From an uncultured bacterium (GTDB lineage Bacteria > Bacillota > Clostridia > Lachnospirales > Lachnospiraceae): 64,000 nt of DNA. The stretch covers positions 30,782 to 94,781 of the forward strand of contig CAMEAQ010000007.1 of NCBI GenBank assembly GCA_945911275.1, in the 5' to 3' direction. The notes under the pieces were generated by a model that saw only the letters and a program-made list of their open reading frames with translations, had not been told where the DNA came from and ran no database searches. Position numbers and translations under genes: made by a program. Each line of letters opens with the position of its first letter. Position 1 is the stretch's first letter. Shown in pieces: positions 7,357 through 48,214 of this stretch.

Positions 7357-7384
7357 AAGAGAGCCATTTGAGCTCTCTTTTTTT
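7357..7384 (+). terminator. intrinsic terminator of RR-HK-PepSY unit
   Basis: AAGAGAGC/GCTCTCTT stem followed by a T run. Confidence 0.8.
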
Positions 7385-7556
7385 ATATCATAGGAAAGTG
7401 CTTCGCATTTTCCTATGATATAAAAACCCTCCGGGGGGATGCACACGATGCGCATAGGAAAGCTGCTAAAGCAGCTACGCATCGGCGCTCAAAGTGTGCA
7501 AGCCCCCCATGAGTGAGGGGTATGGGGAGTTGAAGTGGGTTTGCCCACTTTGTTCT
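7380..7556 (+). repeat. 177-bp structured interspersed repeat (MITE/REP-like), copy 1
   Basis: 176/177 identical to the reverse complement of 45776-45952; several internal hairpins. Confidence 0.92.
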
Positions 7557-21395: not shown

Positions 21396-21404
21396 AATTA
21401 AGTA

Positions 21405-21536
21405 ATCAAAGGGGAGCTGACTGAAGTCGGCTGAGAGGAAACTGATTGGTTTCGACCCATAACCTGATTTGGATAATGCCAACGTAGGGACATAACACCA
21501 GTATATGATGGAGATGCCTGCGGGTGTCTCCTTTTT
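21405..21536 (+). ncRNA. TPP riboswitch with terminator
   Basis: GGGGAG...CTGAGAG...GACCC.TAACCTGAT.TGGATAATGCCA.CGTAGGGA; terminator GGAGATGCC/GGTGTCTCC plus T-tract. Confidence 0.95.
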
Positions 21537-21663
21537 AGGTTTTCCTATAATCGGAAATTGTTTTCAGGTAATAGGAACGCATACATACAGCGGCAGATTG
21601 GGGACACCACCTTTTGTCGTTTTTTATCAAGTACACCTTGATGTACTTGATGCGAGATGTGCG

Positions 21664-21724
21664 GTGCAAAGCCCCTCATGAGTGAGCGATATGGGGAGTT
21701 GAAGTGGGCTTACCCACTTTGTTC
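21664..21724 (+). repeat. diverged 3' fragment of the 177-bp repeat, copy 3
   Basis: GCCCCTCATGAGTGAG..ATATGGGGAGTTGAAGTGGG....CCCACTTTGTTC matches the repeat 3' end; flanked by the inverted repeat GAGATGTG/CACATCTC. Confidence 0.85.
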
Positions 21725-43786: not shown

Positions 43787-45748
43787 TTATTTCTGTTCTG
43801 CCGGCATTTCTTTTCGGATTTCTTTTGTCCGGATTTCCTTGCAGATATCATCAATAAACTGTTCCAGCGGTTTCACACCCTCATCTCCGGCGAAACGGCT
43901 GCGGACAGATACGGTATGGTCAGCTTCTTCCTGCTGTCCCACAACCAGCATATACGGAAGTTTGGCCATACGGGCTTCGCGGATCTTGAAACCGATTTTT
44001 TCGGAACGATTGTCTGCGGTTGCATCGATTCCGTTTGCTTTCAGTGCTTTCAGAACTTCTTCCGCATAAGCTGTATATTTTTCAGAGATCGGAAGGACAC
44101 GAACCTGTTCCGGACACAGCCAGGTTGGGAATTTTCCGGCGTATTTTTCAATCAGCCATGCCAGTGTTCTCTCATAGCATCCAAGAGATGTTCTGTGGAT
44201 AATATATGGACGTACCTTGTCCCCGTTCTGATCGATGTAGGTCATGTCAAAGTTTTCAGCAATGGCACAGTCAAGTTGGATGGTGATCATGGTATCTTCT
44301 TTTCCATATACATTTTTTGCCTGAATATCAATCTTCGGACCATAAAAAGCAGCTTCTCCTTCTGCTTCGGTGAATGGAAGATTCTTTTCTTTCAACACTT
44401 CACGCAGCGCATTCTGTGTGGATTCCCAGTAATTGTCATCACCCAGATATTTTTTCTTGTTGTTGGGATCCCATTTGGAGAGACGGAAGGTTACATCATC
44501 TGCCAGCCCCAGGGTATCCAGAACATAGTAAGCCAGATCCAGACAGCTCTTTAATTCTTCTTCCGCCTGATCCGGACGGATCACCAGATGACCTTCGGAG
44601 ATGGTGAATTGACGGACACGGGTCAGACCATGCATTTCTCCGGAATCCTCAGCACGGAACAGAGTAGAAGTTTCACCCATACGGTAAGGAAGATCACGGT
44701 AAGATTTCTGTGTGTTTTTGTATACGTAATATTGGAACGGGCAGGTCATCGGACGCAGCGCAAATACTTCTTTGTCTTTTTCTTCGTCGCCCAGAACAAA
44801 CATTCCGTCTTTGTAGTGATCCCAGTGACCGGAAATTTTGTACAGATCACTTTTGGCCATCAGAGGAGTTCTGGTGCGGACATAGCCCCACTCATTATCT
44901 TCCAGATCCTCGATCCAGCGCTGCAGCTTCATGATCATCTTTGTACCCTTTGGAGTAAACAGCGGAAGTCCCTGTCCAACAACATCAACGGTGGTAAACA
45001 ATTCCATCTCGCGTCCCAGTCGGTTGTGATCCCGGCGTTTTGCATCTTCCATGCGTTCCAGATGGGCTTTCAGGTCATCTTTTTTATTGTAGGCTGTACC
45101 GTAAATTCTCTGAAGACGAGCTTTATTGGAATCCCCTCTCCAGTAAGCCATAGAGGAAGAAGTCAGTTTGAAAGCCTTAATTCCTTTGGTGGACATCAGA
45201 TGTGGTCCCGCACACAGATCAACAAAACCGCCCTGATCATAGAAAGAAATCTCAGAGCCTTCCGGAAGATCTTCAATCAGTTCCACTTTATAAGGTTCAT
45301 TACGTTCTTTCATAAACTGGATCGCTTCTTCACGGGGCAGTGTAAATCGTTTGATTTCGTGTCCTTCTTTGATAATTTTCTTCATTTCAGCTTCGATTTT
45401 ATCAAGAGCTTCTCTGCTGAAGCTTTCGCAATCGAAATCATAATAAAACCCGGATTCAATGGAAGGTCCGATAGCCAGTTTGGCATCCGGATACAGTCTT
45501 TTTACTGCCTCAGCCAGAACGTGGGAGGTTGTATGGCGGTAAGCAGCTTTTCCTCCTTCGTCATTAAAGGTAAGAATATTCAATGCGCAGTCTTTGTCAA
45601 CAATGGTACGAAGATCAACTACTTCGCCGTCTACTTCACCTGCACAGGCTGCTCTTGCCAGTCTTTCACTGATATCTTTGGCAATATCATAGACAGACAT
45701 GGACTGTTCATAATCTTTTTGGGATCCGTCTTTCAATGTAATAATCAT
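43787..45748 (-). CDS. thrS: threonine--tRNA ligase
   Basis: TGS domain, HTTSH, DLCAGPH, RPMTCP, GEAAFYGPKID. True ATG at 45748 after an AGGAG RBS; the longer ORF start lies inside the repeat. Confidence 0.97.
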   Translation of the reverse strand: MIITLKDGSQKDYEQSMSVYDIAKDISERLARAACAGEVDGEVVDLRTIVDKDCALNILTFNDEGGKAAYRHTTSHVLAEAVKRLYPDAKLAIGPSIESGFYYDFDCESFSREALDKIEAEMKKIIKEGHEIKRFTLPREEAIQFMKERNEPYKVELIEDLPEGSEISFYDQGGFVDLCAGPHLMSTKGIKAFKLTSSSMAYWRGDSNKARLQRIYGTAYNKKDDLKAHLERMEDAKRRDHNRLGREMELFTTVDVVGQGLPLFTPKGTKMIMKLQRWIEDLEDNEWGYVRTRTPLMAKSDLYKISGHWDHYKDGMFVLGDEEKDKEVFALRPMTCPFQYYVYKNTQKSYRDLPYRMGETSTLFRAEDSGEMHGLTRVRQFTISEGHLVIRPDQAEEELKSCLDLAYYVLDTLGLADDVTFRLSKWDPNNKKKYLGDDNYWESTQNALREVLKEKNLPFTEAEGEAAFYGPKIDIQAKNVYGKEDTMITIQLDCAIAENFDMTYIDQNGDKVRPYIIHRTSLGCYERTLAWLIEKYAGKFPTWLCPEQVRVLPISEKYTAYAEEVLKALKANGIDATADNRSEKIGFKIREARMAKLPYMLVVGQQEEADHTVSVRSRFAGDEGVKPLEQFIDDICKEIRTKEIRKEMPAEQK

Positions 45749-45775
45749 GATCGTTCTCCTTCTTTCTATATTATT

Positions 45776-45952
45776 AGAACAAAGTGGGCAAACCCACTTC
45801 AACTCCCCATACCCCTCACTCATGAGGGGCTTGCACACTTTGAGCGCCGATGCGTAGCTGCTTTAGCAGCTTTCCTATGCGCATCGTGTGCATCCCCCCG
45901 GAGGGTTTTTATATCATAGGAAAATGCGAAGCACTTTCCTATGATATAAAAA
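45776..45952 (-). repeat. 177-bp structured repeat, copy 2 (inside thrS leader)
   Basis: Reverse complement differs from 7380-7556 at one base. Confidence 0.92.
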
Positions 45953-46185
45953 CAGAAAAGCCCGTCTCTTTCGACTTTTCTGTCGAAAGGGACGAGCATA
46001 TAACTCGCGGTTCCACCCTCTTTGGTGCAGATATGCACCCGCTTCATTTGATGATAACGGAATCACCGTGCCGTATTAGGGCCGCTCAGAGGTGGTCTTC
46101 AGACAATAATCCGGCGGGATGCTTACACCTCTCCATCCCTCTCTGGAGCCATCTTACTGCTTACTCTTCTCTTCAACGCTTTCTA
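45953..46185 (-). ncRNA. T-box leader (Thr, ACC specifier)
   Basis: AGAGA/GGTG stem I motifs, GAAG-ACC specifier (46094-96), AGGGTGGAACCGCG T-box (46006-19), terminator stem 45960-97. Confidence 0.93.
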
Positions 46186-46191
46186 CCAGTT

Positions 46192-46219
46192 ATTATAACA
46201 TTGCAAAACGCTTTGTCAA
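46192..46219 (-). promoter_or_regulatory. consensus sigmaA promoter of thrS
   Basis: TTGACA-16 nt-TATAAT with extended TG. Confidence 0.85.
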
Positions 46220-46228
46220 GCTGGAAAT

Positions 46229-47995
46229 TTGGGAACCGGCAACAGTGCAGTGACTACTGTTACAAAGAATACAGAAATAACTATCATTGGGGATGCTCTG
46301 GATTCCGGCGGCATCACATGGTACTATACCTATGTGATCAAGAGCGGGCAGGTTTACAGCGGTTATATCATTTCTTCGTATGTCAGTGTGGGAACTTCAG
46401 AAAGGACGGCAGATAAGGCAGTGGTGGATGCTTCCAGTCTGAACGTAAGGAAAGGACCGGGGAAGGATTATGCTTCGCTTACAACAGTAAGCAGGAATGA
46501 GACCCTGTATGTTGTGGATATGGATGTATCTTCAGTAAGACAGCAGTGGGCACTGGTATATTTTGAAAAATCGGGGACTAAGTATGTCGGTTATATCCTG
46601 GATGATTATATCTATCAGGAATGGACTGAGCCAAGATACAGTGACCTGGAAACGGAATATCTGGAAGAGCATGTATATCATATGTCAGGAAATCCGGCCT
46701 TTGTGAAAAAACTTACCCAGACCCTGCAGATCTCAGGGAAGGCTGGAGATACGTATACCGGTAATCTGTGGGGATGCGGAGATCCCGTATCGGAGAAAGA
46801 CAACAGGGTATGCGGCCTTGAGGTGGAATTCGTGCTGAATGACGGCACCCTGGAGACTTACACCAGTACTTTCAAAACAGGCGGCAGCGAGTGGCAGTTT
46901 TTGCATGATGTGTTCGTGGCGAAACATCCGTATAAAAGGATCAATGTCAGCTGCGTCTTCAGTTACCAGGCCAATGTGTTCCTGTTTGACGGGCTGGGAT
47001 TTTACCGTGAGGATTTCTCCGAAAGCTATGTCTATGATACAAAGGGAAATGTGATCAGCGTCCAGGACAACGCAAAAAATACAAGCAAGTTCGAGTATGA
47101 TACAAATAATAATATCTCGAAGATCACCGATCCCAAAGGCAGCAATTTCACGGATACCTATGACAGCAAACATAACGTACAGACGGCTGTATCTGCTGAA
47201 AAAACAAAGTATACGTTCACCTATGACAGCAAAGGGAACCCGACCACAAGCAGGGTGACAAACGCAGATGCGGATACGGGACCCTACATCCAGTCAGGGA
47301 TGACCTACACTGGGGATGGAAATTATACGGCGACCGTTACGGATCCTTTGGGGAATACCGTCCGGTATGAGTATGATGCACTCGACCGTCTGGCATCTGT
47401 TTTAGATGCCAGGATGGATATAACCCGTTATACCTATGATCCCTATGGACGTCTTACAGAGGTAAATAAGGATATTGATGAGGCTGACACTGCAAAAGTT
47501 CAATATACTTATGAGAAAGATGAATTAAAGACCATTGCTACAAATGGTATATCTTATACGCTCAGCCAGGACTCTTTCGGGAAACCTGCCGGTGTAGCTG
47601 CAGGAAGCCGGCAGCTGGTCAGCAAAGTCTATGAGGACTACAACGGTAATCTGGCATCGCTTTCTTACGGGAATGGTTTCACCTGGCTGTATGATTATGA
47701 TGACCTGGATCGTCTGGTGCAGATCCGGATGAAGGATACCAATGACCAGACGTATGTAATGTACCGTTATGAGTATGACCAGGAAGGCAACCTGTGTACA
47801 GAATACGATGTGCGCGAAGATCTGGGGACGGAAACGATCACAACCCGCTATTTTTACGATCTTTCAGGAAGGCTGGCATACTGCAGGAATGACCGTGATG
47901 AGGATTACCGTTATACTTACGACCAGAACAACCAGGTTACGAAGATAGAGAACGGGAACCAGTTTAGGAAAACGGAGACCGTCTATACTTATGAA
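46229..47995 (+). pseudogene. internal fragment of an Rhs/YD-repeat protein with SH3b and jelly-roll domains
   Basis: No RBS or ATG; LNVRKGPGKDY SH3b; many YD/YDxxG repeats; no terminal PxxxxDPxG core end or toxin tip. Confidence 0.8.
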
Positions 47996-48007
47996 GGTGA
48001 ATATTTT

Positions 48008-48214
48008 ATGGATGCATGTATAGAGTATGAACTTTATACTGAAGAAGAGTTAAAAAAATACTTTGATGAAGAATTTGAGAAACATGTTATGCCTATTATT
48101 AAAGAAGGAAAAGAGAGGTTAATACAAGATTTGGATTATTTCTTTGATGAGATGTTTGAAGAAGAAATACAAAAGGTACTAAATAAACTCGGTATCGATA
48201 GGGAACATCAGTGA
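48008..48214 (+). CDS. small acidic helical protein (68 aa), fused in frame to the Rhs fragment
   Basis: GAAGGTGA RBS-like sequence before ATG 48008; visibly more AT-rich than the Rhs fragment. Confidence 0.45.
   Translation: MDACIEYELYTEEELKKYFDEEFEKHVMPIIKEGKERLIQDLDYFFDEMFEEEIQKVLNKLGIDREHQ

Follow-up and report, generated by a model that had tools for sequence, protein, structure and literature searches.

Probable miniature IS91-family element between the T-box attenuator and the ribosome-binding site of thrS in a gut Lachnospiraceae genome

What is a highly structured repeat doing in the regulatory leader of an essential synthetase gene, and how did it get there? The question is raised by a window of 64,000 nt (the whole stretch of DNA that was analysed) from an Oliverpabstia-like member of the gut Lachnospiraceae, in which a repeat of 177 nt, counting a T-run shared with its target, lies in the T-box leader of thrS. 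Based on comparisons with the other copies of the repeat, with insertion sequences (IS) and with thrS leaders that lack the insertion, we hold with good confidence that it is a non-autonomous miniature derivative of the IS91 family, inserted at a T-run behind a hairpin and near-neutral at thrS.

A preliminary description had placed the repeat between the attenuator and the ribosome-binding site (RBS), and the order promoter, T-box, terminator, repeat, 27 nt and ATG is confirmed (Table 1); only the coordinate of the thrS start codon in that layout was off, by 1 nt. The leader combines a match to RF00230, a Thr specifier, a T-box sequence and a terminator upstream of a synthetase gene, the product of which matches TIGR00418 with 618 bits and which is single-copy in the 3.98-Mb assembly. 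The terminator is native, as alignments of empty sites show. The left junction of the insertion falls within its T-run. No promoter- or terminator-like site was scored within the element, including any internal promoter able to bypass the T-box, and read-through transcripts of thrS should for this reason include it. Coupling of its transcription to threonine starvation, as suggested earlier, follows from this position. We note that a 661-aa ORF (window 46229-48214, + strand) begins about 10 bp or less from the -35 box of thrS.

Table 1. Positions in the window of the parts of the thrS locus, the hairpins of the element and the two further copies.
Feature	Position	Strand	Remarks
Sigma-70 promoter of thrS leader	46192..46219	-	TTGACA-16-TGnTATAAT, TG-extended, 12/12 consensus matches
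T-box leader RNA	45985..46185	-	RF00230, 115.2 bits vs gathering score 93
T-box specifier	46096-46094	-	ACC (Thr), context GAAG-ACC-A; read by eye
T-box sequence	46018-46006	-	GGGTGGAACCGCG; read from sequence
T-box terminator	45948..45997	-	hairpin 45997-45960 (-23 kcal/mol), T-tract 45959-45948
Element (probable IS91-family miniature)	45776..45952	-	173-177 bp
H1	45953-45905	-	23-bp AT-rich palindrome, perfect duplex; oriIS-like end
H2	45892-45832	-	
H3	45830-45811	-	
H4	45800-45781	-	followed by GTTC at 45780-45777; terIS-like end
Spacer	45749..45775	-	27 nt; RBS AAGGAG at 45761-45756
thrS, threonine--tRNA ligase	43787..45748	-	653 aa; ATG at 45748-45746
Copy 2	7376..7556	+	98.9% identical to thrS copy; directly 3' of upstream ORF's terminator
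Copy 3	21536..21724	+	diverged and rearranged; directly 3' of TPP riboswitch (21400-21508) terminator, upstream of thiC

The proposal that the sequence is a repeat is borne out by the near-identical copy 2 and by a profile search of the whole genome (E < 0.01), which yields ~39 loci, ~5 of them full length, many in a short form and the remainder fragments. Homology of copy 3 is clear only in its 3' module (21664-21724). The short form consists of the 5' palindrome, then CCCTCCGGGGGATGCACAC, fused to TTTGTTCT, and the family is mostly made up of modular miniatures of 50-180 bp. At thrS, the net insertion relative to the empty allele is 172-173 nt. The 5' end comprises a T-run and then ..ATAGGAAAG within a long palindrome, and the 3' end reads CCCCTCATGA.TGAGGGG..GGGGAGTTGAAGTG, a hairpin and then CACTTTGTTC, the last hairpin (H4) being AAGTGGG-TTTG-CCCACTT, followed by TGTTC. 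As RNA or as a single DNA strand, the element folds into four hairpins, H1-H4, at -88 kcal/mol (z = -8), and 12 base pairs are held by compensatory changes across subfamilies in an alignment of 19 full copies from several genomes. No Rfam family matches the element at the gathering score or at E up to 10, and a BLAST comparison to a phage collection returned no match.

Two other repeats were observed along the way. At C4:88128-88300, C32:21158-21330 and C17:53041-53120, the same 5' palindrome is followed by a second module (GGGCAGGATCGCACTGCGGCGGAGAG...GAATCCTGCAAAGCAGGATTCTTTTTT), which carries its own terminator-like hairpin at the end, i.e. a related mosaic repeat family. RF01699 ('Clostridiales-1 RNA') has four above-gathering matches in C1:1-280000 and one that adjoins an element copy at C2:~361887-362044; judged from these positions, the matches appear to behave as a dispersed repeat more than as a single sRNA gene.

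The identity of the element is indicated by its ends. Four Y2_Tnp genes are present in the genome, and the one on contig C78 is an intact ORF of 391 aa, free of stops, with matches to Zn_Tnp_IS91 (PF14319, 84 bits) and Y2_Tnp (PF04986, 148 bits). The corresponding IS, at about C78:264-1851, begins right after the T-run of a native terminator; it starts with GCTTTATAGGAAATTCC, compared to ATATCATAGGAAAGTGC in the element, and ends with CCCCTCATGAATGAGGGGCTAGGGGAGTTGAAGTGCCGAAGGCACTTTCAG, compared to GCCCCTCATGAGTGAGGGGTATGGGGAGTTGAAGTGGGTTTGCCCACTTTGTTCT. The right ends agree over 35 nt at 89% identity. On the left, the similarity is short, comprising the T-run and ..ATAGGAAA(G/T)T.. common to the element, the C78 IS and its orthologue in the related genome G016, and, between element and C78 IS, ..ATAGGAAA.. 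plus GATATAAAAACC. Overall, the ends of the element and of the C78 IS are about 70-89% similar. The G016 IS is 71% identical to that of C78 and has the same two ends, and across the three the H4 stem is maintained by compensatory changes (GTGGG/CCCAC, GTGCC/GGCAC and GTGTC/GACAC).

Members of the IS91 family have neither inverted repeats nor target duplications and move their bottom strand, with an oriIS carrying subterminal palindromes and a terIS in which a single palindrome stands beside GTTC (PMC13181058, PMC5714925), the tetranucleotide cleaved at the termination end in IS801 and IS1294 (PMC13181058). The element resembles IS91, IS801, IS1294 and their miniatures in these respects, and in having an autonomous relative that encodes Zn_Tnp_IS91 and Y2_Tnp. 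Its ends (TATATCATAGG... and ...CACTTTGTTCT) do not form inverted repeats, and comparison of the empty and filled thrS alleles reveals no target duplication. The ends are functionally distinct as in the family, with two hairpins unlike each other: the H4 palindrome stands beside GTTC, as in a terIS, and the H1 palindrome at the origin end abuts the target T-run. The transposase genes of the C78 and G016 ISs run antisense to the element orientation used here, in agreement with a moving strand that is antisense to tnpA. Failure of termination is common in the family (PMC13181058, PMC5714925), and tandem and partial copies such as those found here are the expected products of failed rolling-circle termination. 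The target differs, as characterised members use bare GTTC/CTTG, whereas the origin end of the element is preceded, in nearly all copies, by a T-run (TTTT) behind a DNA hairpin, which fits only the looser pattern NTTN; we treat this site as a variant target of the family. The host, a gut member of the Lachnospiraceae, and the predominance of miniatures set the element apart from characterised members as well.

By analogy to published IS91 transposition, we propose that the element is mobilised in trans by a rolling-circle process via a single-stranded circle. A transposase supplied in trans would nick beside the palindromic oriIS-like end, one strand would be displaced as far as the hairpin and GTTC of the terIS-like end, and the displaced strand would enter the target, always in the same orientation, on the 3' side of a T-run that is preceded by a DNA hairpin. 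The copy pair of 98.9% identity, the polymorphic insertion at thrS and tandem copies in the related genome G027 are traces consistent with such mobility. The search for an autonomous partner covered the four Y2_Tnp genes of this genome and nine from relatives, and no autonomous IS with near-identical ends, i.e. a true master copy, was found among them. The Y2 loci on C81, C83 and C85, as well as the nine of the relatives, have no ends in common with the element, and apparent end fragments at C9:35801 and C9:50458 do not represent an autonomous copy.

Two neighbouring features of the C78 IS were also recorded. Within the IS, just downstream of the transposase gene, C78:352-560 (- strand) encodes a very acidic ORF of 69 aa (MEAVTIKRITEEEL...DDDDFGEEGFYIF) that has no Pfam match and lies in a region alignable with the orthologous IS of G016; its product may serve as an accessory protein, by analogy to Orf121 of IS91. 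A different IS at C78:1848-3463, bounded by terminal inverted repeats (CCAGACTGTAGACAAAGCCC) and containing a 493-aa ORF, adjoins the terIS end.

Where does the element insert? Nearly every copy stands, in constant orientation, immediately behind a native GC-rich hairpin and T-run that differ from copy to copy. Of 33 loci with a preserved 5' end, 31 have a hairpin of -6 kcal/mol or better that ends at most 10 nt away, and in the other two one is present if the palindrome is read, by eye, in the opposite orientation. Such a hairpin accompanies only 21.5% of 4693 intergenic runs of T>=5 (p about 7e-19); for random intergenic positions the share is 20.8%. Consequently, the hairpin belongs to the target or to retention, and a T-run alone does not explain the observed placement. 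The same placement is observed for copies from six other genomes, and the tandem copies of G027 use as target the hairpin and TTTGTTCT of the preceding copy. The earlier notion of a 'safe-harbour' strategy therefore holds in the form of a target preference for one orientation directly 3' of a hairpin and T-run. Most copies lie behind ordinary 3' terminators, and one behind the terminator of a tRNA. With respect to replication, 33 of 38 copies are on the G>C strand, not distinguishable from genes (80.6%), the thrS copy being one of those on the opposite strand. Intrinsic terminators are sites of this kind, the attenuators of T-box and riboswitch leaders among them.

Attenuator leaders are occupied more often than terminators at large. 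Among the 14 T-boxes of the genome, five have a copy or remnant directly after the terminator, namely those of thrS, ileS (C20), cysE (C2), a BASS-type transporter (C19) and metG (C3, a remnant). As background we used 1133 predicted hairpin and T-tract sites outside gene interiors, about 3% of which are occupied, so that about 0.45 occupied T-boxes are expected; the count in riboswitch and T-box leaders against expectation, asked for in the preliminary description, hence reveals an enrichment. The hypergeometric p-value for four to five T-box matches varies with the assumed number of usable terminators, from 6e-4 to 3e-5 with all 1133 sites and from 0.012 to 0.0016 with 500, and without the window's own copies, when 3 of 13 T-boxes are occupied, it is 0.005 and 0.044, respectively. 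Further copies are found behind the TPP-thiC terminator and behind an FMN riboswitch that precedes a RibU-like transporter, and one follows a borderline cobalamin match (30 bits vs gathering score 31.5), a possible leader assignment. An unbiased Rfam sample of 280 kb contains three riboswitches, which suggests roughly 40-55 cis-regulatory leaders genome-wide. Among the matches listed for seven relatives, at least 4 of 73 T-boxes carry an insertion (tyrS in G008, thrS in G007, and both ileS and metG in G010), and two of these correspond to orthologous sites in this genome. A classification of the 1133 predicted terminators by gene distance gives 24% vs 17% leader-type, and is crude, with 45% assigned to 'other'. 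Taken together, we regard the enrichment in attenuator leaders, about 4-10-fold and weaker in the relatives, as real but moderate in size and as moderately supported. Nothing specific on repeats in T-box leaders was found in the searched literature.

Two copies also follow homologous leaders without annotation, upstream of SPFH/flotillin-type genes (C9:17353-17653 and C16:51028-51328). The leaders are conserved over ~110 nt, begin with AAAAGGGAGTAGC and end in a strong terminator (AAGACTTTTAT...ATAAAAGTCTTTTTT), with the element behind it in both cases; they have no Rfam match and, as judged from their sequence, are candidates for an unannotated attenuator.

The excess in attenuator leaders may arise because terminators that are strong or in frequent use are preferred, because the same sites are struck recurrently and/or because copies are lost more slowly. 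It could reflect slower loss in leaders instead of preferred insertion, since only small deletions can remove a copy between terminator and RBS, and copies in leaders would thus persist longer. An alternative that concerns only the enrichment, and is compatible with an IS91-type miniature, is that insertion requires active termination, with a paused polymerase or displaced non-template strand exposing hairpin and T-run, so that constitutively transcribed and mostly terminated leaders become hot spots. The contrast between five of 14 T-box leaders and about 3% of predicted terminators is in agreement with this idea, as are the independent strikes at the thrS terminator in two species, the perfect consensus of the thrS leader promoter and the copy behind a tRNA terminator. 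We nevertheless consider it unlikely, as the relatives have 4 of 73 occupied T-boxes among the matches listed, the p-value hinges on the assumed number of usable terminators, the gene-distance classes differ little, copies show no strand bias beyond that of genes, and slower loss in constrained leaders gives the same pattern. A further-reaching version, in which targets selected by termination turn T-box, TPP and FMN attenuators into hot spots and, in addition, the four-hairpin RNA alters processing or stability of the read-through mRNA, appears distinctly unlikely to us; if true, amino-acid and vitamin switches, among them that of the essential thrS, would have their output rewired again and again by a selfish element.

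Whether the element acts at thrS at all can be judged from the history of the insertion. The comparison of thrS leaders in related genomes that had been suggested reveals a polymorphic site, filled in two strains and empty in three near-identical leaders. A second strain, GCA_019972935.1 (99.7% identical over 3.1 kb), shares the filled allele, and the insertion is absent from the Oliverpabstia MAG L001 and from G010 and G015, with leaders about 99% identical. With junctions marked by a slash, the empty allele is ...CTGTTTT/AATATC..., or in full ...GGGCTTTTCTGTTTT/AATATCAACTAAGAG/AAGGAGAACGATCATG, and the filled allele ...CTGTTTT/TATATCATAGG...CACTTTGTTCT/AATAATATAGAAAG/AAGGAG..., with CTGTTTT/TATATCATAGG at the left junction, TTTGTTCT/AATAAT at the right and no duplication. 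Three further species, whose leaders are 89% identical, lack the element and have a spacer that is naturally longer, and G007, with a 76% identical leader, has independently acquired an insertion of another subfamily right behind its own thrS T-box terminator. Because the locus of copy 2 is occupied in G015 (L083/L150), a genome without the thrS copy, the latter probably arose by recent transposition from a copy-2-like source. One feature does not seem to be explained by a clean insertion: the 14-nt spacer AATAATATAGAAAG (window 45762-45775) differs at about half of its positions from the 15-nt AATATCAACTAAGAG of the empty allele, between flanks that are about 99% identical. A search for a donor flank containing AATAATATAGAAAG found none.

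In other leaders, copies erode by deletion. In ileS, the copy is full length here and in G010, and a 37-nt footprint in G015; in metG, G010 has a short form, and this genome and G015 have a remnant; in cysE, the 5' 88 nt are left here, the rest having been lost via AGCTGCT microhomology, and G015 and G010 have an empty site. Such decay by deletion argues for a tolerated selfish DNA and against an adopted or maintained regulator, as far as sequence comparison can tell. Conserved presence at orthologous sites, as would be expected of a functional RNA, was not found, the thrS site being empty in the three ~99% identical leaders.

It may instead be argued that the element has been adopted as a part of the leader, and that its RNA alters processing or stability of the read-through thrS mRNA, for instance through cleavage of the H1 duplex by a double-strand-specific RNase that leaves H2-H4 as a protective 5' cap, or by providing a starvation-coupled small RNA. 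The very stable fold with compensatory changes in its hairpins, the over-representation of copies in attenuator leaders and the unusual, conceivably compensatory divergence of the RBS-side spacer in the filled allele speak in favor of adoption. Set against this, the thrS insertion is recent, copies at ileS, metG and cysE are worn to footprints in sister genomes that retain the leaders, the majority of copies lie behind ordinary 3' terminators, and conservation of the hairpins is equally expected from recognition of single-stranded DNA by a transposase. Adoption is therefore very unlikely in our view, and a regulatory role of the element in the thrS leader is unsupported.

As a tolerated insertion, the element would add a very stable four-hairpin segment to the 5' UTR of read-through thrS mRNA. 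Its position after the U-tract and before the RBS would leave the T-box decision and translation initiation intact, which would account for its tolerance before an essential single-copy gene. Predicted accessibility of the RBS is similar with and without the element (mean unpaired 0.61 and 0.45, respectively), and masking of the RBS is not predicted by this calculation. The net effect on thrS is most likely near-neutral.

As to what else the element might be, other elements share parts of its behavior. The palindrome-associated transposable elements (PATEs) of IS200/IS605 and REP/RAYT resemble it in HUH single-strand transposition, subterminal hairpins, absence of target duplication and abundant gene-less miniatures in intergenic DNA, and are unlike it in relying on Y1 transposases and in having similar hairpins at both ends, whereas the ends of the element match a Y2, IS91-type IS. 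Group IIC introns integrate unidirectionally behind the stem-loop of intrinsic terminators, the DNA hairpin being key for recognition (PMC3898094). They are thus alike in the site behind a terminator hairpin, and unlike as retroelements with a ribozyme and a reverse transcriptase, which the element does not have. That the element belongs to another type of single-strand transposon (an IS200/IS605 PATE or REP/RAYT-like), as its lack of inverted repeats and target duplication, its subterminal hairpins and its constant orientation on the 3' side of a short motif close to a hairpin could suggest, or is the relic of a group IIC intron, which likewise inserts after intrinsic terminators, is highly improbable, since both ends match an IS encoding an IS91-type Y2 transposase, the 3' end is a hairpin with GTTC as in a terIS, the two end hairpins differ from each other, no group II intron model reaches the gathering score in the window and the element itself is without an Rfam match. 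In the same manner, a PATE or omega-RNA-like element of IS200/IS605, an IS110 bridge-RNA-like element and a BOX-like repeat were dropped as candidates, both ends matching the IS91-type IS. The pneumococcal BOX and RUP, bcr1 of Bacillus cereus and EFAR of Enterococcus faecalis are modular repeats as well, short and structured, and are frequently transcribed as part of the UTRs of adjacent genes. We know of no IS91-type partner and no strict position after a terminator T-run for any of them.

In conclusion, we here describe a family, probably of IS91 type, that parks behind terminator hairpins much like group IIC introns, a target choice absent from the searched IS91 literature. Because regulatory attenuators are terminators too, it has repeatedly landed in the leaders of synthetase and vitamin genes, with thrS struck twice independently and ileS, metG, cysE, tyrS, thiC, a riboflavin transporter and, within the genus, one transporter T-box also affected. 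The natural pairs of alleles with and without the insert could be used to test the tolerance of a T-box leader for additional structured RNA. For annotation, the family calls for caution, as long 'extra' segments of riboswitch leaders in gut Firmicutes can be transposon debris and not new regulatory domains. Finally, if targeting depends on termination itself, the family would represent a new link between transcription and transposition.
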